This document shows positions 17,949 to 38,700 of a stretch of 51,454 nt of DNA, in pieces; within the stretch, counting starts at the first letter, position 1, and every line of letters starts with the position of its first letter. Source of the DNA: Aulosira sp. ZfuVER01 (GTDB taxonomy: Bacteria > Cyanobacteriota > Cyanobacteriia > Cyanobacteriales > Nostocaceae); contig JAVRCV020000070.1 of the NCBI GenBank assembly GCA_034530615.2, positions 1 through 51,454 of the forward strand, read 5' to 3'. The notes beneath the pieces were generated by a model, which made no database searches, was not told the origin of the DNA, and saw only the letters and a list, made by a program, of their open reading frames with translations. A program made the position numbers and the translations under genes.

Positions 17949-18215
17949 ATGAGTATATCGCTTAATCCTACTCAAGAGCAATTTGTTCTATCTAAAATTG
18001 AAAGTGGAAAATATGCGAATGTGGATGAAGTAATTTATGCTGCATTTAAATTGTTAGAAGAACAGGAGCAAGAATATTCTCTTTGGCTAAATGAGACTCA
18101 GAAGAAAGTAGAAGTTGGTTTTGCAGAAATTGAACGAGGTGAAGTTCTTGATACAGAACTTGTTATTAACCAACTCAAAGATAAACTGCGCCAAAAACGC
18201 GAGGCTCAAACATGA
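17949..18215 (+). CDS. ParD-family (ribbon-helix-helix) type II antitoxin
   Basis: MSISLNP..ESGKYANVDEVIYAAFKLLEE pattern; acidic; overlaps the toxin by ATGA. Confidence 0.85.
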   Translation: MSISLNPTQEQFVLSKIESGKYANVDEVIYAAFKLLEEQEQEYSLWLNETQKKVEVGFAEIERGEVLDTELVINQLKDKLRQKREAQT

Positions 18216-18508
18216 GTCGTTCTATCATATCTCAAACTGCCAGTAAGGACTTGACTGAGATTGTCGATTACTTTGCAAATATTAATGTTGAAGCAGGGGA
18301 AAGTTTTATCCAAGAGTTTGAGAAAAAATGTAAAAATATTGCAAATTTTCCTAATATGGGGCGTAGTTATGAAGATGTCTCTCCATTTTTAAGAGGAATT
18401 CCTATTGATGGACATATTATTTTGTACAAAGTAATTGGTGATGTAGTCACCATTATCCGAGTTGTTAGTGGAAGGCGAGATTTAAAGTCATTATTTTCAG
18501 ATTCTTAA
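18212..18508 (+). CDS. RelE/ParE-family type II toxin
   Basis: Pattern ASKDLTEI..FPNMGR..HIILY..IIRVVSGRRDL; translationally coupled to the antitoxin. Confidence 0.85.
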   Translation: MSRSIISQTASKDLTEIVDYFANINVEAGESFIQEFEKKCKNIANFPNMGRSYEDVSPFLRGIPIDGHIILYKVIGDVVTIIRVVSGRRDLKSLFSDS

Positions 18509-18536
18509 TCAGAATATTAAGTTAGCCAAATATCCC

Positions 18537-19325
18537 ATGCAGCAGTCAACTCAAGGCAACAACCGCGATTTTCTTCGCCAGCTTATCACCCTGGCGGCAA
18601 TTATCGGCGCTTTCGTTATCAATGTGATATCGAACATTTTTCCGCTGAATGGACTCAGCATTGGGGCAATTTCCAATACTTTGTTCAAAAATGTCTTGAT
18701 TATCCCTGCTAACTATGCATTTGCTATTTGGGGGTTGATTTACCTCGGTTTGTTTGCTTTCGGAATTTACCAATTTCTCCCTAGCCAAAAAGATGATTCA
18801 GATTTACGCAACACAGGATATCTGTTGGTAATTGCTTCTATTGCTCAAAGTATCTGGGTATACCTCTTCCTCTCTCGGCTGTTTGCTCTTTCTGTTGTCG
18901 CAATGCTGTTGATTTTGCTACCCCTGATTGGTGTTTATTTGCGGCTAGATAGTGGCAATAAACCTGTAACTCGGCAGAAAAAGTGGTGTATCCACAGGCC
19001 TATCAGCATTTATCTAAGTTGGATTAGTGTAGCAACTATTGTAAATGTCGCCTGTGCTTTATATTTCCAAAGTTGGAATGGTTGGGGCATTTCTGGGGAA
19101 ATGTGGACTGTCATTTTGTTGTTGATAGCAAGTGCAATTGCTGCCATCATTGTCATTCAGCGCCGAGATATCGCTTACGCAGGAGTAACCGTGTGGGCAA
19201 TTTTGGCGATCGCAATTAAACACTGGAACAACCCTATACTGAGGAATGTGGCATTAGCTTTGGTAGTGGCTCTTGTCCTCATCACCGTCATTAAAAATTC
19301 ACATACCCAACAAGAACAGATTTAA
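18537..19325 (+). CDS. Tryptophan-rich sensory (TspO/MBR-like) membrane protein
   Basis: Multiple TM helices; motifs PANYAFAIWGLIY and SIYLSWISVATIVN. Confidence 0.7.
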   Translation: MQQSTQGNNRDFLRQLITLAAIIGAFVINVISNIFPLNGLSIGAISNTLFKNVLIIPANYAFAIWGLIYLGLFAFGIYQFLPSQKDDSDLRNTGYLLVIASIAQSIWVYLFLSRLFALSVVAMLLILLPLIGVYLRLDSGNKPVTRQKKWCIHRPISIYLSWISVATIVNVACALYFQSWNGWGISGEMWTVILLLIASAIAAIIVIQRRDIAYAGVTVWAILAIAIKHWNNPILRNVALALVVALVLITVIKNSHTQQEQI

Positions 19326-21151: not shown

Positions 21152-21304
21152 ATAGAGAATTTCGTGTACTCTAAGAAAGATTTGGCAATCCTGTTATCTT
21201 AAGGTTTATGTTAGATTTAAAATCTTTTTTATAATCAATACAGCAATCTTTGTATCTACCAAAGGTTCTTATTTATCCTTAATAAGTAGTAATAATTTTT
21301 TAGA

Positions 21305-22048
21305 ATGCCGAGGATTCTTGTCATAGACGATGACCCAGCAATTTCAGAACTCGTTGCCGTCAACTTGGAAATGGCTGGCTACGATGTTAGTCAAGCAGAA
21401 GACGGGATCAAAGGTCAGGCGCTAGCTCTCCAGCTACAACCAGACTTGATCATGCTCGATTTGATGTTGCCAAGAGTAGATGGATTTACCGTCTGCCAAC
21501 GCTTGCGTCGGGATGAGCGCACATCTGAGATTCCCGTGTTAATGTTGACCGCTTTAAGCCAAACACAAGATAAAGTGGAAGGCTTCAATGCTGGTGCAGA
21601 CGATTATCTCACCAAACCCTTTGAAGTTGAAGAAATGCTGGCACGAGTGCGGGCACTATTGCGACGCACTGACCGTATTCCTCAAGCGGCAAAGCATAGT
21701 GAGATTCTTAATTATGGGCCACTGACCCTCGTTCCCGAAAGATTTGAGGCAATTTGGTTCCATGAAACCGTGAAACTGACCCACTTGGAATTTGAGTTAC
21801 TTCATTGCTTGCTCCAACGCCACGGACAGACAGTTTCTCCCAGCGAAATCCTGCGGGAAGTTTGGGGCTATGACCCAGATGATGACATTGAAACGATTCG
21901 AGTACATATTCGCCACCTGAGAACCAAACTCGAACCAGATCCTCGCCATCCCCGCTACATCAAGACCGTATATGGCGCTGGCTATTGTCTTGAGTTACCT
22001 AGCCTACCTCCATCCGCTGAAGGCGCTTCAACATCAGTTGTTGAGTGA
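21305..22048 (+). CDS. rpaA: OmpR-family response regulator RpaA
   Basis: [26 protein letters not shown]...DLMLP...[17 protein letters not shown], recognised as RpaA. Confidence 0.9.
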
Positions 22049-22080
22049 AATCAGGGTAAATTCCCTAACCTGAGCCATAA

Positions 22081-22118
22081 ATTGGCACTCTGTTCTGTCA
22101 AACTTAGCGAGTGCCAAT
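22081..22118. terminator. Hairpin downstream of rpaA
   Basis: Perfect 10-bp stem ATTGGCACTC/GAGTGCCAAT between convergent genes. Confidence 0.45.
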
Positions 22119-22137
22119 AGGATGTTGTGTCTGAAAT

Positions 22138-22265
22138 TGGTGTCAACTTAGCAAATACTGCTTGTAGTTAAGCTCTTCATTTGCTCAAACCCGACATTAA
22201 CTCATAGTCAGTATTTCAGCCTTTCAAGGCACTGAGATCCATTGATAACTTGTGTGTAGTTGACC
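22138..22265. mobile_element. Degenerate MITE-like element
   Basis: Left end TGGTGTCAACTTA (also at 161) and imperfect right end TAGTTGACC. Confidence 0.4.
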
Positions 22266-22271
22266 GAAAAA

Positions 22272-22449
22272 AGGCAGAGGGCAGAGGGCAGAAGGAGTCC
22301 TATTTCTCTGTGAAGAAATTTCATTGTCCTGCGTGAAAAGGACAAGGGGGACAAGGGAGACAGGGGAGATAAGAAAACAGAGGAGAAATAACAAATTCCT
22401 CTTGAGTCTTACCCAATGCCCAATGCCCCATGCCCCATGCCCAATGCCC
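22272..22449. repeat. STRR-type short tandem repeats
   Basis: GGCAGAG x3, GGACAAGGG-type x3-4 and CCC(A/C)ATG x5. Confidence 0.8.
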
Positions 22450-23723
22450 TATTTCTTACTAAAAATTCGATAGTAAAGCCAGGTGCTAATTTCGTTTAAG
22501 GGAAAAAGCAGGTATGTTAAAGGATTTATCGTCACAATAATATTGCGAAAATCTCGCCGTGCTAAAAACAGAATCGCACGAGCTACTTGCTGTGCTGACA
22601 TGACCCCGTAAGGATTAAGTTGACTCTTAAACGGCCCCAGGATTAACTTGCGAATTATACAATCCCTATCTAGGCGCTTCAGCGTCACAATATCCCCTAG
22701 GGCGCGTTTGCTCAGTTCATAAAGAGGACTTAATGCTGGAGATACCTCAGCCTCAGATGTATTCACCCAGATTTCTTTAGTTGCTTTTGATTGTGGCCCT
22801 GTCACAGTTGTTAAAAATATATCCATCAACCGCAACGTCGAAAAAGTATTGACTTCATAGGAGGAATTAATCGCCTCAGATGTGCGGCTACCATAGACAT
22901 TGATTCCGTGATTGAGAATCAAAATATCAACTTTCTCTAAACTATTTTTCAAATCTGCTTCCTTACCCAATTCCCAAGCAACTATCGCTACCTTATCTTG
23001 TGCCTGTAATTTATCTGGGTGAGTAGTTAATGCTACTACCTTGGCGTTATGCTTGAGCAATTCAGCCGCTAATGCTTGCCCTAAAGCACCAGAAGCACCA
23101 GTTAAAGCTACGGTTTTACCCTTCAGGGAAAGTCCTGTGCCCAATATAGTATCGACTAAAGGAAATACACCACTATAGTAGGCGTTGACATCATCAAAAT
23201 GATGCCGCCAGTGATAAGACCGATTCACCCACCAAACTGATGGAATCGTTTCTAATGGCCCGGGAAGATGGGTGTAATCTGTGTCAATTTTCCCTAGGAA
23301 ATATCGCCGGGACGCACCATATAAGAAGGTACAAGCATAAGCTACTCCTAGCCACAAGCCCATTTGGTTGAGAAGCAAAGCAACTATTGTCAAGATTGTA
23401 ACTAGGATACTCGACTCAACAATGTCGTTGTACAGCTGGGACTCTTGGTAAATTTTCAAGGAAACCACCGATAAATCCCGGCGATATGCCTGGTGGTGCT
23501 TATTGTGCCATTTACCCAGCCAAATCCAATAGTGACACAATGCATGATAGCTATCTCTTACTACCTCAGCCAGCAATAGCGAGAATAATCCCCAAATAGC
23601 AAACTGTAAGCAGGTATTTACTAAATCCCAATTTATCTGTAATTGGTTCTCAATCCCAGCCAAGCCAAGAGCTAACATATTCATCGTGATTTTGCTGTAC
23701 TCGTTTTTGTAACCATTCTTCAT
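22449..23723 (-). CDS. Bifunctional sterol desaturase-like / short-chain dehydrogenase
   Basis: His boxes YHALCH, WHNKHH and YHWRHH; SDR motifs TGASGALG and YELSK. The true start may be a downstream Met. Confidence 0.82.
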   Translation of the reverse strand: MKNGYKNEYSKITMNMLALGLAGIENQLQINWDLVNTCLQFAIWGLFSLLLAEVVRDSYHALCHYWIWLGKWHNKHHQAYRRDLSVVSLKIYQESQLYNDIVESSILVTILTIVALLLNQMGLWLGVAYACTFLYGASRRYFLGKIDTDYTHLPGPLETIPSVWWVNRSYHWRHHFDDVNAYYSGVFPLVDTILGTGLSLKGKTVALTGASGALGQALAAELLKHNAKVVALTTHPDKLQAQDKVAIVAWELGKEADLKNSLEKVDILILNHGINVYGSRTSEAINSSYEVNTFSTLRLMDIFLTTVTGPQSKATKEIWVNTSEAEVSPALSPLYELSKRALGDIVTLKRLDRDCIIRKLILGPFKSQLNPYGVMSAQQVARAILFLARRDFRNIIVTINPLTYLLFPLNEISTWLYYRIFSKK

Positions 23724-23981
23724 AATCTAATAAGAATGCTTTCAGGTCGAGTTATAAAGCACACGAAAATTAAACTGCGTCAGTTTTACTATACACAAAA
23801 ATTTATCAAAAAAAGTTGATGTATTAGCAGCGATTATCAGCCAGCACCCAAAAGTATTATTCGAGGTGTGTAGAGGTAGCCCGTCGTAGATAAAACTGTG
23901 AGTGCAAAATAGTTTACAAACAGAAAAATCATGTACTATTTTTGTACTAATATTTTTCTTGTACCTTTTGAATAAATACCC

Positions 23982-24800
23982 TTGGCATACGATAGCATCT
24001 GCCGATTTTTGACATCTGAGTATCCATTACCTTTTGTAAATTGGTTACTTAACTCTGGGGAAACAAATATTCAGGTATTACCCAGCGAATTAAGTGTGGA
24101 ACCAATTCGTTCTGATGCTTTATTTCAACTACCAGAACTAAACAGTATCCTGCATTTGGAGTTCCAAACAGTTCCTAAATCAAAACCGTTTCTCCCTGTG
24201 AGGATGCTGGATTACTGGTTGAGAATTTATCGAAAATACGAATGTCCCATTGAACAAGTAGTTATCTTCCTAAAACAAACAGATTCTCCTGCTGTTTACA
24301 TCAATGAACTTGCAGTTGGGAATACAAGACATAAATATAGAATTATCCGCCTGTGGGAGCAAGACCCGCAACCGCTTCTGGCTAACCCCGCACTGCTACC
24401 ATTAGCAGTTTTGGCTTCCACAGATGCACCAGCAGCTTTGCTAGAGCAAGTTGCTGTGGAAATAGATAAAATCGAGGAACCAGAACAACAGCAAAACATC
24501 ACAGCTTGTGTAGAAGTACTAGCTGCTTTGAAATTTGATAAACAACTAATTCGCCAGTATTTCAGAGAGAAACTAATGGAAGAGTCACCTATTTATCAAG
24601 AAATACTAGAAAAAGGTGCCAGGAAAGGAAAGCTACAAACCTTAACTCGCCTACTTTCACGGCGATTTGGCACAATTTCTACTGAGTTACAGCAACGGCT
24701 TCAAGCACTGTCGATTAACCAGCTAGATGATTTAAGCGATGCGCTGTTTGACTTTTCGGAAATATCCGACTTGGCCATTTGGTTGCAAAACCAGCAGTAA
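23982..24800 (+). CDS. Rpn-family PD-(D/E)XK nuclease/putative transposase with C-terminal DUF4351
   Basis: Motifs IRSDAL..ILHLEFQ and RMLDY; C-terminal RLLSRRFG...QLDDLSDALFDF...DLAIWL; TTG start. Confidence 0.85.
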   Translation: MAYDSICRFLTSEYPLPFVNWLLNSGETNIQVLPSELSVEPIRSDALFQLPELNSILHLEFQTVPKSKPFLPVRMLDYWLRIYRKYECPIEQVVIFLKQTDSPAVYINELAVGNTRHKYRIIRLWEQDPQPLLANPALLPLAVLASTDAPAALLEQVAVEIDKIEEPEQQQNITACVEVLAALKFDKQLIRQYFREKLMEESPIYQEILEKGARKGKLQTLTRLLSRRFGTISTELQQRLQALSINQLDDLSDALFDFSEISDLAIWLQNQQ

Positions 24801-24839
24801 CTCAATTTATTTACAGAGCGTGAAGAAGGCAATTGAAAA

Positions 24840-25101
24840 GCGATCGCCTGTTTTAAACTTATCACCAGAAGTGCGATCACATAAAACAAGAGTATAAATA
24901 TTTAGGATGCGATCGCCTGTTTTAAACCTATCGCCAGAAGTGCGATCGCCTTTACGAGAGTATGAATATTTGAGATGCGATCGCCTGTGTTAAACTTATC
25001 ACCAGAAGTGCGATCGCCTGTAGTAAAGTATGAGATGCGATCGCTTGTTTTAAACTTATCACTAGAAGTGCGATAGCCTTGACAAGAGTATGATTATTTG
25101 G
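24840..25101. repeat. HIP1-anchored tandem array of four 41-bp cores with related linkers
   Basis: Core GCGATCGCCTGTTTTAAACTTATCACCAGAAGTGCGATCGC (with variants) starts at 24840, 24909, 24977 and 25037. Confidence 0.9.
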
Positions 25102-25134
25102 AGCGTGCTCAATTTATTTAAAGCTAACAGATGA

Positions 25135-26484
25135 CTACTCACTAGCTGCGAGCTTATCAAGAATTTCTTCACAATAACTAATAACATTACCTGAGCTTAT
25201 CGTTTTCCAATCTGACCACTGATATGAAGAAGCAAAATTCAGAATTTTATTTTCTATATTCTTCATTTCGTCTTGGGAAAGTTTCCTTTCACGACCATAA
25301 CCATTGTTTGATAGTCCCCATATAATGGCTATAAGTTTAATTGCAATATTTTTAATATCTGTAGACTCCATATGAATTTTTACGATATCATCGCCATCAT
25401 CAAGTGCACCTAAAGTACCCAAAAAAGCTCCTCCAGCAAGCCCACCTATTTGTGCACCGAATAATGCTCCTGCCCCTGCTCCAAGTCCTCCAGTGAGCAA
25501 ACCTGTAATAGCGCCGACTATGGCAGCCCCGACACCAGCTCCAATTACACCACCAGCACTCGCAAGCCCTGTACCCCAACCTATCCTGGCTGGAATATTA
25601 GCTGATGATTCTACTGCTGTCTGTAATTCTTTTTTAGGTGTAGTTGGATACTCAGCAGCTACCTTATATAGTTCCACAACATCGTGTACAAAGTCTACAA
25701 TTATTGCCTGTAACTCTCTCACCATCTTATTCTTGGCTTTCTCCTGAGAGAATGAATTCTTTTTAGTTGCTACCTGGAACTCTTGTATTTCAGTAATACA
25801 GTTGGCTAACATAGAGAGAGCTTCTGTAAGTATTTCTTTTTGTCTATTTTTAAATTCATTCAAACCTTGAGAAAATAAAGCCTGCTCTTCAGAATTTAAG
25901 ACGCGGTAAATAGCATCATAAATTTCATTTATCTTTGAAGGTTTATCCCAATGGGCATCGAAAATAATAGTATTTTCAATACCTTGCTCTTTTAACACTT
26001 CTTTCCAGAGCTTAATACGGTTATCAACTATTTCTTGACTACTAGCTTCTAACTGTTTTTTTGCTTGATTTAAAATTCCTATAACTTTAGGATGAATATT
26101 TACAACTGCTTCAATTTCTTCGATATAAGTTTCATCAGGAACGACACTTAAATTTCCTACATAGAAAACAATATTACTTTTTCCTATAGCTTGTATGGCA
26201 TCCATATCTAAACTCATTTTGTCTTCCCATTTCTTAGGTAGTTTATACTCACGATTTTTATCTATTTCTTCCCGATACATATTGTATATTTGAGCATAAC
26301 GAAAACCAGGTGTGTCTATGAAATAAGCTTGAAGCCCATCATAATAGTATGCAGTACCTACTTTAGTAACATTTGGTGAATCACTTACCTCCCCAATAGT
26401 GCTTTTCATTAAAGTTCTGATCAGAGTAGTTTTTCCCGTATTTGTGTGTCCAGCAATTGCAATGCTTATCTTTGGTAATGCCAT
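25135..26484 (-). CDS. P-loop GTPase (DUF3482-like) with C-terminal glycine-zipper membrane segment
   Basis: G1 GHTNTGKTT, G3 DTPG and G4-like LNQ; helical region followed by about 60 aa of GxxxG-rich hydrophobic sequence. Confidence 0.8.
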   Translation of the reverse strand: MALPKISIAIAGHTNTGKTTLIRTLMKSTIGEVSDSPNVTKVGTAYYYDGLQAYFIDTPGFRYAQIYNMYREEIDKNREYKLPKKWEDKMSLDMDAIQAIGKSNIVFYVGNLSVVPDETYIEEIEAVVNIHPKVIGILNQAKKQLEASSQEIVDNRIKLWKEVLKEQGIENTIIFDAHWDKPSKINEIYDAIYRVLNSEEQALFSQGLNEFKNRQKEILTEALSMLANCITEIQEFQVATKKNSFSQEKAKNKMVRELQAIIVDFVHDVVELYKVAAEYPTTPKKELQTAVESSANIPARIGWGTGLASAGGVIGAGVGAAIVGAITGLLTGGLGAGAGALFGAQIGGLAGGAFLGTLGALDDGDDIVKIHMESTDIKNIAIKLIAIIWGLSNNGYGRERKLSQDEMKNIENKILNFASSYQWSDWKTISSGNVISYCEEILDKLAASE

Positions 26485-26622
26485 ATTTATCCTCTAATTT
26501 TAATGATAGATGAGTGAAATAGAAGCGTATTTCTAAAATGTCATTGGCAATTTTGAGAACTTGTCAAGATGGAAGTCCAGCTAAAACTGCTTCATACTGA
26601 GGAAATTAAAAACTGTTGGCGG

Positions 26623-28281
26623 CTAAACGCACACAACCCGAAAGCCGATGCAGTTGTTCTTGCTGTTGGGGGCATCCCAATCGCGAGCAGCAGACCGACA
26701 GTTCATAGGTTCGTCCTTCCAAGAACCACCGCGCAGCATTCGATCATGACTATTAACCCACGCACTGCCATCATTTGGCGCTCCCTTATAATTAAAATGG
26801 AAATGGTCGGCACACCATTCCCAAACATTTCCGTGCATGTCGTATAATCCAAAAGCATTAGGAGGAAAACTTCCTACTGAAGTGGTTTCGTTTTGCTTTC
26901 GTCCTTTAAGTTCATCTGCAAAGGTTACATTGGCATTGTAATTTGCTAAATCGCTGGTAATCGTTTTACCAAAATAAAATGGTGTTGTAGTTCCCGCACG
27001 ACAGGCATATTCCCATTCTGCTTCAGTGGGGAGGCGGTATTTTCTTCCTGTTTCGGCAGAAAGTCTGGCACAAAATTCCATCGCATCATCCCAGGAAACT
27101 GTTTCTACAGGATGGTCATTAAAGACGAAGCTAGAGGGATGGGGTTTAAGATCGCGATTAACTCTGGGTAGTTCTGCTACTGATCTCCATTGTTCCTGGG
27201 TGATGGGGTATTTACTCATAAAGAATGGCTGAACCACTACTTCATGCAGAGGTTTCTCTTCATCGTTCCCTTCCCCCTCTGGTGAACCCATCATTAATTT
27301 GCCACCAGGAATAGCGGCTATTTCTAGAGTGATACCATTTCCAATATCTTCTGTAAAATATTGGGCTTGACACTCTTCTAATTTGATTCTTTTTCCTTTA
27401 GTGTCAACACTGACCACTTCATCAGGTACAAGTTTTAACAAACTTAGCCATTCTATCGGTGTCTGAAGACGTTTTTCCGGTTGTAGCTCCATCCCTGCAA
27501 GAATTGCTTGATTTACCCTGTTGCTAACACTGTGATTAAGATTTTGAGGAGGTGTGAGGGAATTTATAGATCTAGCATTTGCATGTTCTGGATCAGTTTT
27601 AGTCAACAAATAATACAGTGTTGCAGCTAAGGCATAGACGTCGGTATAACATCCTTCTCTCTTATTCGTAGAAAATTGTTCGGGCGGGGCGTAACAGGCC
27701 GTCGCCGATTTTGTCAACTGGTTTGTTTTATTTGGGATAAAATGCCGTGTTAATCCAAAATCAATCAGTACTGCTTCATTAGTTTTAGCACGAAGCATAA
27801 TGTTTTGTGGGTTGATATCCCTGTGTAGCCAGTTATTTTCGTGAAGAATATTCACTGCTTTAGCAATCTGCTTGATATAATGCAATGCTTTAGTTTCTTC
27901 AAGGAAACCTTGTTTTTCAATGTGCTGTCTCAAGTTTTCCCCTTGAATGTACTCCATTACCATACATGGTACTTTTCCCCAGTTACCTCTTTCTTCGTTA
28001 AAGGAGTCTTTAAACTCGACGATATAACGTTTTATATAGAACCTATCGTCTTTTTGTAGAAATTTACTCAATTCGTATAACTTATGTATTTCAGCCCAAA
28101 AATTTTTCTGATGATCACGATAATTCGTTGCTTTTAGGAATTCATCTTTTATGGTTTTAATAACAACTTTATTGCCCTGTTTGTCTCTGGCAAGATAGGT
28201 AATACCATAACCGCCTTCTCCCACTTGTTGTTCAATAATATAGCAGTCATTGTTCAGTTTTTGTCCCGCTTTCCAAATCAT
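26623..28281 (-). CDS. Ser/Thr protein kinase fused to an FGE-sulfatase (SUMF1) domain
   Basis: Kinase motifs GEGGYG, VVIK, HRDINPQN, DFG and YAPPEQ; FGE motifs RLPTEAEWEYACRAG, GLYDMHGNVWEW, RGGSW and IGFRVV. Confidence 0.9.
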   Translation of the reverse strand: MIWKAGQKLNNDCYIIEQQVGEGGYGITYLARDKQGNKVVIKTIKDEFLKATNYRDHQKNFWAEIHKLYELSKFLQKDDRFYIKRYIVEFKDSFNEERGNWGKVPCMVMEYIQGENLRQHIEKQGFLEETKALHYIKQIAKAVNILHENNWLHRDINPQNIMLRAKTNEAVLIDFGLTRHFIPNKTNQLTKSATACYAPPEQFSTNKREGCYTDVYALAATLYYLLTKTDPEHANARSINSLTPPQNLNHSVSNRVNQAILAGMELQPEKRLQTPIEWLSLLKLVPDEVVSVDTKGKRIKLEECQAQYFTEDIGNGITLEIAAIPGGKLMMGSPEGEGNDEEKPLHEVVVQPFFMSKYPITQEQWRSVAELPRVNRDLKPHPSSFVFNDHPVETVSWDDAMEFCARLSAETGRKYRLPTEAEWEYACRAGTTTPFYFGKTITSDLANYNANVTFADELKGRKQNETTSVGSFPPNAFGLYDMHGNVWEWCADHFHFNYKGAPNDGSAWVNSHDRMLRGGSWKDEPMNCRSAARDWDAPNSKNNCIGFRVVCV

Positions 28282-28369
28282 ATCTACTTTATCTTCTTAT
28301 CCTCTTTGATAAATAAAATACCGATATCTAAATAACAAAGGTATTTAATAAATACTTTTTAGTAATTTA

Positions 28370-29512
28370 TTATGTCAGTAATTCACAGATTAAATCTAAT
28401 TTATTTTTTTCCATTCTTAAAAATTTTCTTGCTATTTCTTGTAAGCTATCTATATTATATTTACTAGTATCATCTAAAGCATCATTAACATTTAATAAAT
28501 TGTCAAGAGATGCTTTCTTGTTATCTAAATCTATTTCTGGATATTGTATCTGGAATCGATAATATTGTCTGTCTTGAATACCCCTTGGCAATTTTGTTGA
28601 TAATAATTGTTCCATTTGATAATCTACAACTTCACTTTGTCCATTCAAGACCATATTAATCAGGGGTTCTATCCACTTGATTTGTCCCCAATTATATATA
28701 TCTTCAGTCTTCAATTTACGAGATTTTCTTCCTGTACCTAGCGATACTACTAATATTTCATCTAAAGATATGCTCTCTCCTGTCTTTATCTTATAAGAAT
28801 TTATTGCCTCTAGAATCGCAATAGAAGTTGGATTATTCGCAAATACTCCTCCATCGACTAATGTATATCTTGGCTCTGAATGATTATAAACATCAAGAGG
28901 ATAAGGTTTAAAATATGTAGGTGCTGCTGAAGTTGCCAGGGCAGCATCTTGCATTTTATAGCCTTCACATACTATACGAAAATTTTCAGAATTTTGGTAT
29001 TCTCGTTCTTTTTCAGGCTTGCTTGTAAAGAAAAAAGGTAGCCTTAAGTTTGTAGCATAACTAGGAATTAAAACTTCTGTTAATGCTTCACTTAGATATG
29101 TTACTCCTAAATATTCATCAATGATTTTTTCTTTTCCTTTTCGAGTATATTTTGTTCTATACAAATCTTCGATATTTATATCTTTTATACCGAGAATACT
29201 TAAGCCAGATTGGACAGATGATAATGTGATTTGATGGAGAGTATTTGTATTTCTTCTTTGGAAGATTATACTTCCTTGAGTTTTATATAGATTAACCAAA
29301 TCTATGGCTTTAAATTGAGGTGCAGTTTTATCTTGATTTGGTTTTGTAAGACCCAATGCCAATATACCTCCTGTTGAAGTTCCTGCAATTAAGTCAAATA
29401 GCTCACATATTGGCTTTCCCGTTCTATCTTCAATTTCCGCTAAAATCATCGCTGGCACAATACCTTTAATTCCGCCGCCATCGATTGATAACACTTTAGC
29501 CTTGAAACTCAT
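28370..29512 (-). CDS. Patatin-like phospholipase
   Basis: Motifs DGGGIKG, catalytic GTSTG, SAAPTYF, DGGVFANNP and SLGTG. Confidence 0.92.
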   Translation of the reverse strand: MSFKAKVLSIDGGGIKGIVPAMILAEIEDRTGKPICELFDLIAGTSTGGILALGLTKPNQDKTAPQFKAIDLVNLYKTQGSIIFQRRNTNTLHQITLSSVQSGLSILGIKDINIEDLYRTKYTRKGKEKIIDEYLGVTYLSEALTEVLIPSYATNLRLPFFFTSKPEKEREYQNSENFRIVCEGYKMQDAALATSAAPTYFKPYPLDVYNHSEPRYTLVDGGVFANNPTSIAILEAINSYKIKTGESISLDEILVVSLGTGRKSRKLKTEDIYNWGQIKWIEPLINMVLNGQSEVVDYQMEQLLSTKLPRGIQDRQYYRFQIQYPEIDLDNKKASLDNLLNVNDALDDTSKYNIDSLQEIARKFLRMEKNKLDLICELLT

Positions 29513-29719
29513 AGCATTACTCCTTAAAAATTATGGGTGTAAAATGTAGTAGTTACATAATCCCAGTTTGCGTACTTTCCCTTGCTTAGACGAGGCAACT
29601 TTAGGCTTTGGTAAACAAACGAGAGCGATCGCTACAATTACTCAATCTAATGAGTACGATCGCCCCCACACATCTGTACAAATCAAAACCAAGTGAACAT
29701 CCTGAGCATAAAAAATTAG

Positions 29720-29787: not shown

Positions 29788-30417
29788 CTACAGTCTCACA
29801 ATCCCACGATTGAGTGCGGTGACTAAGGCTTGAGTGCGATCGCTCACGTTCAATTTGCCGAAAATATTATTAGCGTGGAACCTCACCGTACTCTCAGCGA
29901 TATTCAGGACAGTGCTAATCTGCTGGTTATTCTTACCCTTGGCTATCAAACGCAGTACTTCTAATTCGCGATCGCTCAATTCTTCACTACCCGTTCGCTC
30001 GGCTAGCTTGGCTGCTATACTTGGCGGAATGTACTTTTGACCTCGATGAACAGTGCGAATCGCATCTAAGAGTTCGTTTGGTTCCGCGCCTTTAAGGATA
30101 TAGCCTTTTGCACCCGCCCGCAGTCCGCGATAGATATCTTCATCGCCATCAAAGGTAGTTAAGACAACGATGCGGGCGTGTTTAAATTTAGCACAGATAG
30201 CTGCGATCGCATCAGCACCTTCCATCTTCGGCATTCGCAAATCCATCAGCACCACATCCGGCTGATGTTGGCGGAAAAGTTCTATGGCTTCTCGCCCGTC
30301 GCCAGCATGGCCGACTACGGTCATGTCTGACTCACATTCGAGAAACATTGTTAAAGCTTGTCCTAGAATCGGATGATCCTCAGCAATCAGGATGCGAATG
30401 ACTTTGGATTGGCTCAC
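29788..30417 (-). CDS. NarL/LuxR-family response regulator
   Basis: REC domain (AEDH, MDLRMP, KGYILK) plus LuxR HTH (LSDRELEVL..GKNN..I..VSDRTQA). Confidence 0.92.
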   Translation of the reverse strand: MSQSKVIRILIAEDHPILGQALTMFLECESDMTVVGHAGDGREAIELFRQHQPDVVLMDLRMPKMEGADAIAAICAKFKHARIVVLTTFDGDEDIYRGLRAGAKGYILKGAEPNELLDAIRTVHRGQKYIPPSIAAKLAERTGSEELSDRELEVLRLIAKGKNNQQISTVLNIAESTVRFHANNIFGKLNVSDRTQALVTALNRGIVRL

Positions 30418-30423
30418 GATCGT

Positions 30424-33207
30424 TTACTCCCAGTAGATGTACACTGAAACTTCTGTTCCCTGTCCTGGTGAACTCTGAATTTTTAGTTTTGCGCCGATGC
30501 GTTCAGCTCGTTCGCTCATGACTAAAAGACCAAAGCTGTTGACAATAGATAGACTGCTCATGTCAAAGCCTTGGCCATCATCTTGGATTCGCAAGCTGCA
30601 CTGGCTTTCTTGGTAGGCTAGTTTTATGTGGATTTCTTTAGCTTTGGCATATTTGAAAGCATTAGTTAATGCTTCTTGCGCAATGCGGAGCAAGTTATTT
30701 TCCACATCTGGAGGTAGGGGGTAGATTTCGCCTAGGACTTGATAATGAATCTGTGTATTGGTAGGGGAAAACATCTGCGTTGCGAAGCGATCGATCGCAT
30801 TGCACAAATCGCCTTCTTCTAATAATTGGGAGCGCATTCCTTTAATCGAACGGCGTGCTTCGGTTAGCCCAGAGTGAGCCAAGTCGCGTCCGGCTTTGAT
30901 TAATTTCTGTGCCGTTTCTCTATCTGTGAACAGCTTCCGGGAGGCGGTGTCTAAGTGAACAATCACAACGGCGAAGGCTTGGGCTAAAGTATCGTGAATT
31001 TCCTGTGCCAAACGGTTGCGTTCTGCTAATACAGTAGCTTGTTCCGCCTGTTTGCGATCGCTGATATCCTGTATTGCAGCCATCCTAATCGTACGCCCAC
31101 GATATGACATGACTCTGGCTCTGATCTCTGCGGGAAAAGTAGTTCCATCCTTGCGTAGGCATACAGTTTCATAAACTCCCTCATCTCCTGAGCGAAGCTT
31201 TCCCATGACCTGTTCCCGGTATTCAGGAGCAGTAAAATCCATCACAGGCATACCAATCACCTCAGAAGATTCATAACCAAACATCTCGGCACAGGTTTGG
31301 TTAGCGTCTACAAGTATGCCTTGCTCGGTGATAGCGATCGCTTCAAAGGATGCCTCTGCCAATAGCCGAAATCGCGTCTCGCTCTCTACAAGTGCTTGCT
31401 CTGCTTGCTTGCGTTCAGTGATTTCTCGTTGTAGTTCCCGGGTACGTTCAGCCACCTGCTGCTCTAAAATCGAATTATAATCTGTTAGGAATTTCTCTAC
31501 TTGTTTGCGTTCGGTAATATCGATACAAACGGTGAGCGCATATATTACTTTCCCTGATTCATCAAAAATTGGCGTGCTTAAAACTTCTACAGGGATAGTT
31601 TTATTCGGATGTCGAAATTCTATATTATCAACGTGGACAGTTTTACCTGCTAAAGAATAAACAGTTGGTATTTCAGCAGCAGGGTATAACCGATCAGTTC
31701 CAGCTAAATAAATTTGGTAATATTCTGCCATTTGTTCGTATTCGACAAATGGTAATATTTCTACATTGAGGAACTGTTGTGAAACTCTATTAGTGTAGTA
31801 GCTTTTACCAGTGGTATCAGTTATCGAAACGCTGACAGGTATCGCATCAAGAAATTGCTTTAAGCGAGTTTCACTTTGCAACAAAGATTTGTTTAAATCC
31901 TGCAATTCCCCAAATTTTGTTTGCAGTTGCTCTGCCATACTATTAAATGACTTTGCTAACTCTCCCAACTCATCGGAACGATTTATTTCTATTCTCTTTT
32001 CCCATTCACCTTGAGCAAGTGCCATAGCAGATTCTTTTAAAGTCAAAATTGCTTGAGTTATCCACCTTAGAATCATAATCCCAACAGCTACAGCCACTAT
32101 CAAAGCAACAATACACAGCCCAATAGTACTGCGAGTGTTAGCATTAATTTCCTCCATGAAGTCAGCTTCCGGGACTACAACCACAATCAGCCAATCAAGC
32201 CCCCGACTTTCTTGGAAAGGTAACACTTGAATAAACTGTCGTTTCCCATCGATTGTAAAATCTAATTGCTGTTCACTTTTAATCGAGTTAAAGTTAGCAA
32301 ATTTTGCTTCTAAATATTTAGCTGTAGCTTGTGTCATCACGTCATTACTATCTTTAGCTAACAGTCGCTGCACTTTATTTTCTGGCAATGCTAAGGCTGA
32401 TTTAGCAAACCGGAATGGCTTTTCTTTGGTGGAAGTTGCTACTAAATTTCCGGAACGCTCGATAATAAAACTTTGTCCTCTTTTACCAATTTTTAAGCTT
32501 GCTAAAAAAGTGCCAATTTGTAAAAGATTGAGATTTGACAGTAATACTCCTATCAATTGGCCTTGTTTGTTATAAACTGGCTGGCTAGCAGCAATATATA
32601 AAGTACTACCAGTAATATGAGGATAAATTTCACTCCAGCTTTGCTTACCTGTCTTTATCGGTTTTTTATACCAATCACGCTTTTGCGGATTGTAGTTTTT
32701 ACCTCTGTCAATTATTTTCAGGCGATCGCCTGTACCGTTAGTGCTATAGGTACGTAATTCATAGCCTGTAGATTTGCTAGATGTTCTGATAGTCAGTGAG
32801 CCATCAAAGTACTTTTCTGCTGAAAATAACTCTTTGTTAGGGTTGGCAAATCCAATTAAGTTTACACCATTGAATATTTTTAGTTGTTCTACGAAGTAAT
32901 GCTCTAATTTTGGCGAATTTTGGATATCTAAGCCACCAATGTTAATAGCTACTTCATTAGCTTGATTAATTTGGTGAAGAGTTTCTAGGTATTTTTGTAG
33001 GTTCTGCTCAACACGTCGGCTAATTTCAGTCTGAAGTTGCGTTGCAACATTATTGACTGCTTTTTGCCCATTTATTAATGAAAAATAACCCGTCAAACCA
33101 ACCGCAGCGAAGATTTGGAGAATAAAAGGAACTATCAGAACAGTTCGCAGGGAAAGTTGATCGGGAATATTAGTAAATTTTTTAAGAGATAAGTTTTTGT
33201 TAAACAA
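30424..33207 (-). CDS. Sensor histidine kinase (TM-Cache-TM-HAMP-PAS-PAS-HisKA_3-HATPase)
   Basis: HAMP DELGELAKSFNSM; two PAS domains ending DITERK/DISDRK; H-box LAQEIHDTLAQ; EALTNAFKY, DDGQGF and PGQGT. Confidence 0.9.
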   Translation of the reverse strand: MFNKNLSLKKFTNIPDQLSLRTVLIVPFILQIFAAVGLTGYFSLINGQKAVNNVATQLQTEISRRVEQNLQKYLETLHQINQANEVAINIGGLDIQNSPKLEHYFVEQLKIFNGVNLIGFANPNKELFSAEKYFDGSLTIRTSSKSTGYELRTYSTNGTGDRLKIIDRGKNYNPQKRDWYKKPIKTGKQSWSEIYPHITGSTLYIAASQPVYNKQGQLIGVLLSNLNLLQIGTFLASLKIGKRGQSFIIERSGNLVATSTKEKPFRFAKSALALPENKVQRLLAKDSNDVMTQATAKYLEAKFANFNSIKSEQQLDFTIDGKRQFIQVLPFQESRGLDWLIVVVVPEADFMEEINANTRSTIGLCIVALIVAVAVGIMILRWITQAILTLKESAMALAQGEWEKRIEINRSDELGELAKSFNSMAEQLQTKFGELQDLNKSLLQSETRLKQFLDAIPVSVSITDTTGKSYYTNRVSQQFLNVEILPFVEYEQMAEYYQIYLAGTDRLYPAAEIPTVYSLAGKTVHVDNIEFRHPNKTIPVEVLSTPIFDESGKVIYALTVCIDITERKQVEKFLTDYNSILEQQVAERTRELQREITERKQAEQALVESETRFRLLAEASFEAIAITEQGILVDANQTCAEMFGYESSEVIGMPVMDFTAPEYREQVMGKLRSGDEGVYETVCLRKDGTTFPAEIRARVMSYRGRTIRMAAIQDISDRKQAEQATVLAERNRLAQEIHDTLAQAFAVVIVHLDTASRKLFTDRETAQKLIKAGRDLAHSGLTEARRSIKGMRSQLLEEGDLCNAIDRFATQMFSPTNTQIHYQVLGEIYPLPPDVENNLLRIAQEALTNAFKYAKAKEIHIKLAYQESQCSLRIQDDGQGFDMSSLSIVNSFGLLVMSERAERIGAKLKIQSSPGQGTEVSVYIYWE

Positions 33208-35760: not shown

Positions 35761-38700
35761 TTACGCACCTGAACTAAAAGCACATTCTGCATCAGTCAGT
35801 AAATTAATTTGTGCTAATGTCTGGTTGGGATTGGTAGCGACTACTGCTAACAAAGTTTGAAAGTGTTCGCTCATAGAGGCGATCGCCTGATGCTCAAATA
35901 AATCGCTGTTGTACTCCCAAGTTGCTTTCAGCGCAGTTGCAGTTTCTACCATTGATAGAGTCAAATCAAACTTTGCTGTCATTGACTCTATATTGATGGG
36001 ATTTACAGAAATTCCCGGTAGTTCCCAAGGACGGGGGGCGGTTTCTAAATTGAATACCACTTGCACCAATGGACTTTGGCTGAGAGAACGATCTGGTTGC
36101 AAGGTTTTCAGCAGTTGCTCAAACGGCACATCTTGGTGAACAACTGCTGCTAATGCTACATCGCGTACCTGATGTAACAGTTGACTAAAACTCAAATTTT
36201 CTGGAATCTTAAACCGCAGCACGAGAAGATTCACAAACAAGCCAATGAGGGATTTAGTAGCTTGGTGGTGGCGGTTGGCAATGGGAGAACCAACTAAAAT
36301 ATCTCCGCGATCGCTATAGCGATATAGTAAAGTGACAAATGCTGCCAACAGAGTCATAAACAGCGTCACACCTGATTGCTGGCTTAGGGTTTTTAGTTCC
36401 TGGGAGAGTTGAGCATCAATATCAACCTCTAAGCTGCTACCCCTGAACTTATGGAAACTTTTTCGCGGTTTGTCTGTAGGTAGTTCCAGCGACGATTGCA
36501 CCCCTACTAACTGCCGAGTCCAGTAGTTTAGGTGTTGTTGTAATACTTTTGTTGTTAATAACTCCCACTGCCAAAGCGTATAGTCTACATACTGAATAGG
36601 TAAATCCGGTAAGGGAGAAGGCTTACCTGCACAGAAGGCTGGATACAAGCTAGACAACTCTTGCAGCAAAATCTCCATTGACCAAGCATCACAAACAATA
36701 TGATGTATGGTCAGCAGTAATACGTATTCAAATTGAGATAATTGTAATAGCTTGACCCGAATCAGAGAATCTCCAGCCAAATCAAATGGTATATGGGCTT
36801 CTATTTTAGCTAGCTGCTGTACTTCTTTGTCTTGGTCTAATGTATTCTGCAAGTTGACAACTGGTAAGGTAATAGTGGCAGTAGGATTAATCACCTGTAC
36901 TGTTAAACCATTAACTACCTGAAAGTGAGTCCGTAAGCTGGCGTGACGTTGGACTATTTCGCGGATACTGCGCTCTAGAACATTGATATTCAAATTGCCA
37001 ACAAGCCGCACCGCAAATGGCAGATTGTAAGTAGCACTTTTTCCTACCAACTGATCGAGAAACCAAAGTCTGGCTTGGGCAAAAGATAAGGGAAACTCTG
37101 CTTGCTCTTGAGAAACAGGAGTGATAAAAGGTACTATTTGCCCCAAATCAGTTTGACGATAACTAATAATCAACTTTTCTAGCTCGGCTACTGTTGGCGC
37201 TCCAAACAAACAGCCTAAAGGTAGCTCTATCTGATAAGCTTGCCGCAACCGAGAAATAACTTGCATCGCTAGGAAGGAATTTCCTCCCAAAGCAAAGAAG
37301 TTGTCGTGAATGCCAATCTCTTCCAGACCTATGACGGTGGCAATAATATCAGCAATTACAGCTTCCGTAGGTGTTTGTGGCGGTACAAATTGATTGTCCC
37401 GTTGCAAATGGAGATGGGTTTCGGGTAGTGCCTTGTGGTTAACCTCAAAATTCGGTGTAAGGGGAATGTGCTTGAGAATCACAAAAGTTACAGGCACCAT
37501 GTAATCTGGCAGTTTTTGCTGTAAAAAACTACGTAGTGCAGTTGATTTCAAAGTACAGGTTTTTTCTTTATTGGCTGGCTCTGCTGCTACAACATAAGCA
37601 ACTAAGTACTTATCTCCAGATTGATTTTCGTTGATTGTGACTACTGCTTGCTGTACCTTTGGATGTTGAGTCAGTGCATTTTCGATATCTGCAAGCTGAA
37701 TACGGAAACCCCTAATTTTTACTTGCTGGTCAATACGTCCCAGAAACTCTATGTTGCCATCTGGTAGATAGCGGGCAAGTCCAGCAGTTTTGTACAAACG
37801 TGCCTCAGGTTGAGAGCTAAATGGATGGGGGATAAAAGTCTTTGCTGTCAGTTCTGGTTGATTGAAGTAACCCCTTGCTAGTCCATCACCACCAATGTAG
37901 ATTTCTCCAGGTACGCCAACTGCAACTGGCTGTAATTGCATATCAAGCAAATACACTTGAGTATTGGGAATGGGGCGACCGATAGGAACAGTAGCATTAA
38001 GATTAGATGCCGCTGTTACTTGATAACAGCAGGTAAAAGTCGTATTTTCTGTTGGGCCATAACCATTAATTAACTTTAATTCTGGGGCTGCCTGTAGGAG
38101 TTTTTTGGCGTAGGGAATAGATATAACATCTCCTCTCACTAGCAGTTGCTTTAACTGTTTTAATACAACCAGTTGCTCATCTACCAATAAGCGAAATAAT
38201 CCAGGCGTTAGGTATAAAGTTGTCACTTGATATTGGCGAATTGCTTGTCCTAACTCCAGCAAAGAGAGGGTTTGAGGAGGCATCAGCACTAAACGCGCCC
38301 CATTGAGTAAGCTACCCCAAATTTCTAAAGTTGCTGCATCAAAATTAATGGAAGCTAACTGAAGAAAAACATCTTCTTTTGTAAAGTTGGCATAGTTGTT
38401 ACCTTTAATTAAATGCACTACATTTCGATGGGTGATGCTGACACCCTTGGGTTTGCCAGTAGAGGCAGATGTATACATGACATAAGCTAGATTTGCCGAT
38501 GTCATGGATGTTGCAGGATTTTCTGGGCTATATTGCGCAATGATGTTCTCGTCTGTATCGAGGCAAATTAGATGTAGTTGATGCGCAGGTAGAGATGTCA
38601 GCAAATGTGCTTGTGTCAGCAACACTGATACTTGAGTTTCTTCTAATATGTACGCTAAGTCTTCTTGAGGAGAAGTGAGATCTAGAGGTACATAAACACC

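Follow-up and report, generated by a model that had tools for sequence, protein, structure and literature searches.

A patatin-like phospholipase and a downstream tailed Ser/Thr kinase as a candidate conflict module of Nostocaceae, with a DUF3482 GTPase as an optional third gene

The window analysed here is a 51,454-nucleotide stretch of contig JAVRCV020000070.1 from the heterocyst-forming cyanobacterium Aulosira sp. ZfuVER01 (genome G000; 8.0 Mb, GC content 0.413), and its subject is three neighbouring genes that encode a patatin-like phospholipase, a Ser/Thr kinase with an FGE-sulfatase (FGS) tail and a DUF3482 GTPase. An earlier note, made from the sequence alone, had taken this trio for a conflict cassette. 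The conserved core is the patatin with its downstream kinase, not the trio, and the GTPase is an optional, recent and lineage-specific addition to that pair; the mobile, foreign-looking character of the cassette and its conflict-system domains are thereby upheld, whereas its standing as a conserved obligatory system is not. There is about an even chance that the pair is a two-gene conflict module of Nostocaceae, probably anti-phage, in which the tailed kinase gates the phospholipase. The trio lies on the minus strand in the order patatin, kinase-FGE, GTPase, with spacers of 88 and 138 bp:

28370..29512, minus strand: patatin-like phospholipase of the kinase-linked clade, predicted effector; 380 aa; Pfam PF01734; S46/D220, GGGIKG
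26623-28281, minus strand: kinase-FGE open reading frame (ORF); 552 aa; Pfam Pkinase and FGE-sulfatase
27427..28281, minus strand: Ser/Thr kinase domain, residues 1-285; from Pfam Pkinase, alignments, trees and loop motifs
26623..27400, minus strand: FGE-sulfatase (FGS, C-type lectin fold) tail of the kinase, putative sensor; PF03781, residues 323-550
25135..26484, minus strand: DUF3482-family TRAFAC GTPase, lineage-specific third gene; 449 aa; MMR_HSR1 and DUF3482

The three ORFs are real and intact, and the co-directional arrangement, both gaps and the motifs described earlier were confirmed by ORFs, Pfam and translations.

Linkage and settings of the patatin-kinase pair

A patatin search of 389 genomes of the family gave 30 places at E 1e-85 or better, and samples of the phylum and the order (401 genomes each) added more distant patatins. 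On a tree of 77 patatin ORFs, the pair clade comprises ten ORFs from nine genomes (support 99), and a further analysis recovered it as well. A co-directional Ser/Thr kinase is the next gene downstream of every one of them, compared with none of the 67 patatins outside the clade (three of which have less than 200 bp of downstream sequence); as a background, a co-directional kinase follows 36 of 5807 ORFs in the window's own genome. The spread of the pair is patchy (9 of the 389 family genomes), and the two genes have stayed together across 51-86% patatin identity and approximately 30-50% kinase identity (88% for the nearest kinase). They are found in at least six settings, namely a conjugative plasmid, a plasmid-like contig, beside an integrase, beside an insertion sequence, beside an exopolysaccharide cluster and at the site in the window. 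Linkage, intact catalytic residues, tail exchange and mobility are thus observed properties of the pair.

On plasmid NZ_CP151101.1 (locus L152) the pair heads a defence island that continues with a type I restriction-modification system and a SAVED-type CBASS; the SAVED/CD-NTase/ThiF/JAB cassette is separate from the pair and 12 kb away. The contig of L155 carries SNF2- and Mokosh-like helicases and toxin-antitoxin genes. Of the eight other distinct pair loci, these two are the ones with clear defence genes nearby; at the remaining six such neighbours are not evident or the contig ends too soon. As a separate observation on the same plasmid, the type II-like CBASS by the type I restriction-modification system (L309:1349-6419) comprises, besides ThiF and JAB genes, a SAVED effector and a CD-NTase that carries a hypothetical-protein annotation.

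The two patatins of the sister clade are found at L154 and L157. At both loci (L154:3490-9592; L157:2844-8930) a kinase from the partner subfamily is followed by a gene for a 1150-aa NB-ARC-TPR protein, with a 400-aa N-terminus to which no domain is assigned, in convergent orientation with the neighbouring sister-clade patatin. This arrangement is possibly an NLR-coupled version of the pair module.

The kinase and its exchangeable tail

By translation the window kinase shows VIK (K42), HRDINPQN and DFG, and the Hanks-type catalytic residues K42, E64, D155, N160 and D174 (DFG) are present, with the catalytic-loop Lys changed to Asn. All ten partner kinases retain the catalytic Asp, the Asn and the DFG motif; the loop Lys is replaced in seven of them and also in eight non-partner paralogues. 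All partner kinases belong to a single subfamily, of which each genome has 2-6 members, and in the trees two kinase groups mirror two patatin subclades, the branches being long for the partner kinases and very short for the conserved chromosomal paralogues.

The tail differs from kinase to kinase: three carry GUN4, two carry FGE, two share a helical EAD7-like region (39% identical to each other) and three have none. The proposal that FGE is the sensor has to be narrowed, since FGE is only one of several interchangeable tails. The EAD7 identity of the helical tails, and of two GTPase N-termini described below, is a lead only, as the matches reach 13-20 bits against a Pfam cut-off of 32 and one tail has no match. 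At L150:10282-11940 a kinase with an EAD7-like tail is convergent with a small gene whose product matches EAD7 weakly at its end (E 1e-4), which is the pattern expected of EAD-coupled partners. An FGS domain diversified by a diversity-generating retroelement was considered and rejected, since the 3' end of the FGE region has no close second copy and no template repeat in the genome (22-bp match at most), the reverse transcriptase itself not having been searched for. Other FGE-domain genes of G000 form a tandem kinase-FGE pair, of another kinase subfamily, and two caspase-FGE fusions (C49:89483-93398 and C26:47398-52453).

Composition, mobility and history of the trio

Among the 2847 genome ORFs of at least 300 aa, the patatin (GC 0.317, GC content at third codon positions (GC3) 0.19) and the GTPase (GC 0.361, GC3 0.24) fall in the 0.3rd and 2.8th GC3 percentiles, in agreement with the AT-richness previously judged by eye, and the kinase is ordinary (41st percentile). 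The trio contains no HIP1 octamer where approximately four would be expected (0.96 per kb genome-wide). The ratio of nonsynonymous to synonymous divergence (dN/dS) is 0.32-0.34 in all three genes compared with 0.01-0.13 in three core genes, the latter computed against a different genome than the former.

The trio is a mobile unit within one Nostoc lineage. Congener G003 matches the window at 21259-23790 and resumes from 33779, with 386 bp in between, which marks an empty site for approximately 10 kb; the site beside the SDR gene varies among congeners, and none of the 14 congeners has a full-length GTPase. In Nostoc sp. LEGE 12447 (L018) the order is kinase-regulator-patatin-kinase-GTPase, with 85-87% nucleotide identity to the window and flanks unlike the window's; L148 is the same block and was scored once. 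Synonymous divergence (dS) to L148 is 0.22 for the patatin, 0.17 for the kinase and 0.19 for the GTPase, against 0.67 for the response regulator and 0.56 for the histidine kinase, and these lower values indicate a separate and more recent common history for the three genes; the two-component genes also occur without the trio in G020 (L090).

In public sequencing data, run X6 holds a single 5.6-kb contig with the whole trio and no two-component genes, both spacers diverging from those of the window. Runs X4 and X7 contain fragments spanning 25133-29533 (X7 as far as 29388), and one X7 contig links 24988 directly to 29966, bypassing the trio, which is a hint given that its short side has only 85 letters. 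With run X2, a possible source of the window's DNA, left out of the counts, the trio holders beyond its own genome are one genome (L018/L148) and three sequencing runs.

The surroundings of the trio consist of the following features:

24817..25081, no strand: HIP1-containing array of 4 x 68-nt repeats, flanking the insertion and outside the module
29788..33207, minus strand: NarL-type response regulator and dCache-HAMP-PAS histidine kinase (Pfam), with a history separate from the trio's
23982..24800, plus strand: Rpn-like/DUF4351 gene, a convergent bystander; Pfam DUF4351 alone, no NCBIfam match

The 68-nt repeat occurs at one genomic place only and also in L148, and at the same end of L018 the position of the Rpn-like gene is taken by a Uma2 gene. 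The Rpn nuclease gene and the repeat array reported beside the trio are both there, as bystanders, and the label 'Rpn' comes from the earlier reading, Pfam giving only DUF4351. A promoter and terminator scan of the locus gave nothing better than chance. Elsewhere in the window, a ParE-family gene and a 262-aa ORF of no assigned family, with a high GC3 of 0.44, lie between the hgl cluster and a phosphopantetheinyl-transferase-like gene (18212-19325), and a lone nonribosomal peptide synthetase (NRPS) of 1587 aa, read by eye from the translation as C-A-T-C, occupies 35761-40524, the window holding no adjacent cluster.

The DUF3482 GTPase

The GTPase has a GHTNTGKT P-loop and a DTPG Walker B motif, and it matches the DUF3482 family (MMR_HSR1 with PF11981, 29.9 bits against a cut-off of 29.2; Atlas neighbours 0.95-0.96). 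Its model suggests a G domain, long helices forming a stalk and a low-confidence, glycine-rich hydrophobic hairpin; fold searches resolve the G domain only, with IniA, SynDLP and BDLP level with many small GTPases. The glycine zipper of the earlier note is a real stretch (approximately residues 300-355), yet it is present in all 14 printed rows of a 42-row alignment, which makes the glycine-rich region a family trait and not special to this locus.

Homologues occur in 4 of 400 other genomes of the phylum. At the 31 close GTPase loci (L018-L048), five had too little upstream DNA and 26 were scored; the upstream gene is an FGE kinase at one, a kinase fused to a periplasmic-binding-type protein at three (Moorena), a solute-binding-type protein at ten, a divergent HTH-NB-ARC gene at six and another gene at six. 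Conversely, no GTPase match was found in seven of the eight other pair-carrying genomes (completeness 95-100%). The co-occurrence of the three genes that the earlier note proposed to check thus fails in both directions, 25 of the 26 loci having other neighbours, and the trio as a universal unit is ruled out.

A co-directional upstream gene with a periplasmic-binding-type domain is found at 13 of the 26 loci (L019, L020, L025, L027, L037-L041, L047, L042, L045, L046) and comes from three unrelated families: signal peptide-solute-binding protein-transmembrane segment, amino-acid solute-binding protein, and kinase-transmembrane segment-periplasmic-binding protein. This may reflect a tendency of the GTPase to lie downstream of ligand-sensing genes, with only approximately four independent lineages behind the count. 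At L022, L023, L024, L029, L031 and L035, in two separate GTPase clades, a divergent gene of approximately 456 aa with helix-turn-helix (HTH) and NB-ARC domains faces the GTPase, often with toxin-antitoxin genes downstream. GTPase copies broken by a stop were seen in two genomes (L030:9986-11335; L047:9992-11397).

A GTPase profile search gave 116 representatives at E 1e-30, and the 17 longer matches were domain-scanned; N-terminal fusions among them are EAD11 in four and SIR2, CHAT, TPR and a Ser/Thr kinase in one each. With 25% identity, the fused kinase falls outside the partner type, and this kinase-fused protein and one other relative begin with an EAD7-like domain below cut-off. In three distant matches the N-terminus is a membrane region, and one of these matches DUF2868 weakly. 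The EAD11, SIR2, CHAT and kinase fusions of its relatives mark the GTPase independently as a conflict protein.

The patatin

The patatin carries GGGIKG, GTSTG (S46) and DGG (D220) by translation, and thus has the marks of PF01734: the Gly-rich loop, the GxSxG nucleophile, the DG[G/A] aspartate and the patatin fold. Its structure model (pLDDT 78) gives plant patatin-17 as the top Foldseek match, followed by CapV/CapE. Neither the patatin nor the kinase has an NCBIfam family above cut-off; for the patatin, NF041079 (CBASS lipase) scores 187 bits against a cut-off of 200 and NF053870 scores 87 against 400. PADLOC, one of the checks that had been proposed, returned generic phospholipase and kinase matches for the trio and weak LeoBC/LeoA matches for the GTPase.

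Among related cyanobacterial patatins, the neighbouring gene is pdhC, DUF62, a lipoxygenase or a lipase gene, or LamG is fused to the patatin itself. The LamG-patatin fusions of other Nostocales (L094-L106, L108) join a lectin-fold domain to a patatin, in parallel to the FGS kinase. A metagenome profile search with the patatin alignment gave at least 80 distant patatins (32-47% identity) with no kinase or GTPase match among those listed, and is uninformative for the kinase-linked clade.

Proposed function and alternatives

In the preferred reading, the patatin would be idle at rest, and the kinase tail, here the lectin-fold FGS domain, would bind an invader molecule or a stress ligand and cluster the kinase. 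The activated kinase would then phosphorylate the patatin or a partner, and the patatin would hydrolyse membrane lipids so that the affected cell of the filament is stopped or killed; the kinase would stand where CBASS employs a cyclic nucleotide. As for the DUF3482 GTPase, it would be a conflict protein in its own right, directed at the membrane, which was added to the pair a single time, in this lineage, and now travels with it, whether as a partner at the membrane or as a second defence gene that acts independently. The anti-phage role, the function and the binding of the module are plausible predictions from sequence, and the direction of control, with the kinase activating the patatin, is thinly suggested by one broken kinase beside an intact patatin and by the sensor-type tails.

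Several observations weigh against this reading. In both sequence and fold, plant patatin is a better match than CapV, and plant patatins are constitutive lipases. No patatin position is Ser or Thr solely in the kinase-linked clade, as a clade-specific phospho-acceptor would be, and a patatin-kinase fusion was found in none of 39 long homologues, a weak test in which the fusions seen were to LamG, ankyrin and TPR. Other patatin clades also have fixed neighbours that imply no function (pdhC, DUF62 at 14 of 21 loci, a peptidoglycan-binding gene, the LamG fusion), although mobility sets the kinase-linked clade apart from them. Kinase adjacency switches once on the patatin tree, so that the ten loci represent one origin and long co-inheritance, not ten independent tests. 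Each genome has 2-6 kinases of the partner subfamily that stand without a patatin, and monophyly of the partner kinases is weakly rejected (approximately unbiased test, p 0.023, from a quick tree with long branches), which would allow for the kinase having been exchanged once for a paralogue. Clear defence neighbours are present at only two of the eight other distinct pair loci (L152, L155), two contigs being too short, and the window neighbours of the trio are hgl, two-component, ftsH and NRPS genes. Finally, at L149, in one draft genome, a stop interrupts the partner kinase while the adjacent patatin is intact; this stop may be an assembly error.

An unlikely alternative is lipid signalling or remodelling outside defence, in which a kinase-regulated lipase would tune membrane or thylakoid lipids to stress, to a tetrapyrrole (GUN4) or to a symbiotic cue. 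It agrees with plant patatin as the nearest structure, with the lipid-related and LamG-fused settings of related patatins, with the two pair loci that adjoin a glycosyltransferase cluster and with the tetrapyrrole binding described for GUN4 in the available text of Kaur et al. (2020, PMC7159879). Conflict genes are a better fit to the patchy spread (9 of 389), the low GC3, the lack of HIP1, the raised dN/dS, the plasmid defence-island location and the EAD-type tails.

Somewhat less probable still is a toxin-antitoxin-like arrangement, in which the patatin would be toxic alone and the kinase would restrain it by phosphorylation or binding, so that loss or inhibition of the kinase frees the patatin (addiction or abortive infection). 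Modification-based antitoxins exist, the two-gene linkage is strict on plasmids and by integrases, and three partner kinases have no tail, so that a sensor is not required. The intact patatin of L149 beside its stop-broken kinase speaks against such restraint, with the reservation already made for that draft genome, and variable sensor-type tails suit an activator better than a plain antitoxin. Accretion without joint function, by which three separately acting accessory genes became neighbours and hitchhike as one piece of DNA, is equally improbable: the pair linkage arose once, the GTPase has many unrelated neighbours and the site by the SDR gene is variable, but the pair has persisted through several moves, through the exchange of tails and perhaps once of the kinase itself, and to a protein divergence of approximately 50%, and in run X6 the three genes are still together with two different spacers.

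The phospholipase effectors known from bacterial immunity belong to CBASS and are activated by nucleotides. If the proposed conflict module is real, a kinase-controlled phospholipase would be a new activation route in bacterial immunity, comparable to the kinase-gated membrane-death pathways that exist in animals. A broader reading, rather less likely than not, is that filamentous cyanobacteria have an immune module, so far undescribed, whose membrane-destroying phospholipase is activated by a sensor-tailed kinase and not by a cyclic nucleotide, and that one branch of the DUF3482 GTPases is an unrecognised EAD-coupled, membrane-acting conflict family able to join modules of this kind. With only two genes, and with ten natural variants and four tail types, the pair would allow a direct test of whether FGS, GUN4 and EAD domains serve as sensors in multicellular bacteria, as has so far only been predicted, and the fusions of the GTPase relatives offer a first functional lead for DUF3482 GTPases.

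Comparison with known systems

In the accessible literature, patatins act within CBASS, and FGS, GUN4, kinases and EADs within predicted conflict systems. As far as searched, the patatin-kinase pair is undescribed: no description was found in a literature search that left subscription journals mostly uncovered and some supplements out of reach, and the available portions of PMC12480259, PMC13092281, PMC13069673, PMC12419801, bioRxiv 2025.01.12.632604 and bioRxiv 2022.05.11.491447 do not join a patatin to a kinase.

CBASS effectors CapV and CapE (AbCapV, PMC12480259; DS-2/CBASS-DAC, PMC13092281 and PMC13069673, each by its accessible text) are likewise single-domain patatins with GGGx[K/R]G, GxSxG and DG[A/G], and would share the proposed membrane-lysing output; for AbCapV, the cyclic-dinucleotide pocket is described there as F147, K149, D159, E207 and R279. 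The fixed partner of the pair, however, is a protein kinase, the locus has no CD-NTase ORF and the NF041079 score is below cut-off. The SMODS profile PF18144, which distant CD-NTase clades may escape, has no match in the window's own genome, in line with the absence of a CBASS core noted earlier, nor in seven of the eight other pair genomes; the sole match, in the eighth, belongs to the separate SAVED-type CBASS. Since no SMODS match exists in the genome and the patatin is nearer to plant patatin than to CapV, the trio and the pair are, by sequence, not CBASS; the earlier comparison with CapV holds for the motifs and not for closest kinship. The patatin as an orphan CBASS effector was likewise rejected, no SMODS cyclase having been found in its genome.

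Kinases in a candidate defence role are shared with PD-T4-6, MADS MAD6, BREX PglW, Mokosh and HipAD/DS-6, through generic profile matches. Their NCBIfam scores are far below cut-off, their partner genes are absent from the locus and the portions of their descriptions compared mention no pairing with a phospholipase.

The dynamins LeoA/LeoBC (Millman et al., bioRxiv 2022.05.11.491447, in part) resemble the GTPase, as modelled, in combining a GTPase domain, a helical stalk and a hydrophobic hairpin; all 42 members of the GTPase family weakly match PADLOC LeoBC and LeoA, and LeoA is among the Foldseek matches. Unlike Leo, the GTPase is one 449-aa gene and not a dynamin pair, the matches are confined to the G domain (E 4e-15 and 3e-7) and the TM-score to LeoA is 0.28. 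Two adjacent dynamins, as Leo has them, are lacking in the window and at all but one of the 31 loci, the exception (L041) having a second, partial GTPase upstream. With the DUF3482 GTPases (PF11981; fused or linked to DUF2868) the protein shares the GHTNTGKT P-loop and the DUF3482 region, and it differs by belonging to a mostly cyanobacterial branch with no DUF2868 among the neighbours scanned and with N-terminal EAD11, SIR2, CHAT, TPR or kinase fusions.

The predicted NTP-dependent ternary and EAD-coupled systems of Kaur et al. (2020, PMC7159879; 2021, PMC8195603), as far as their available text goes, differ in that the locus has no MoxR/vWA/VMAP/iSTAND core and no DO-GTPase/GAP1; a DO-GTPase is defined by a Walker B glutamate plus GAP1, and Walker B here is DTPG. 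The word patatin does not occur in either main text; in 12 of the 13 supplementary files of PMC8195603 it appears in seven rows, as a scattered neighbour never directly paired with a kinase, and patatin, PNPLA and DUF3482 are absent from two supplements of PMC7159879. Kinase, FGS and GUN4 domains recur in these conflict systems, which share with the pair the FGS, GUN4, kinase and EAD modules, an FGS that is always C-terminal, swappable tails and filamentous hosts. The FGE, GUN4 and EAD7-like (below cut-off) tails of the partner kinases thus belong to the cyanobacterial conflict repertoire described by Kaur et al., which supports the reading of the pair as a conflict module.

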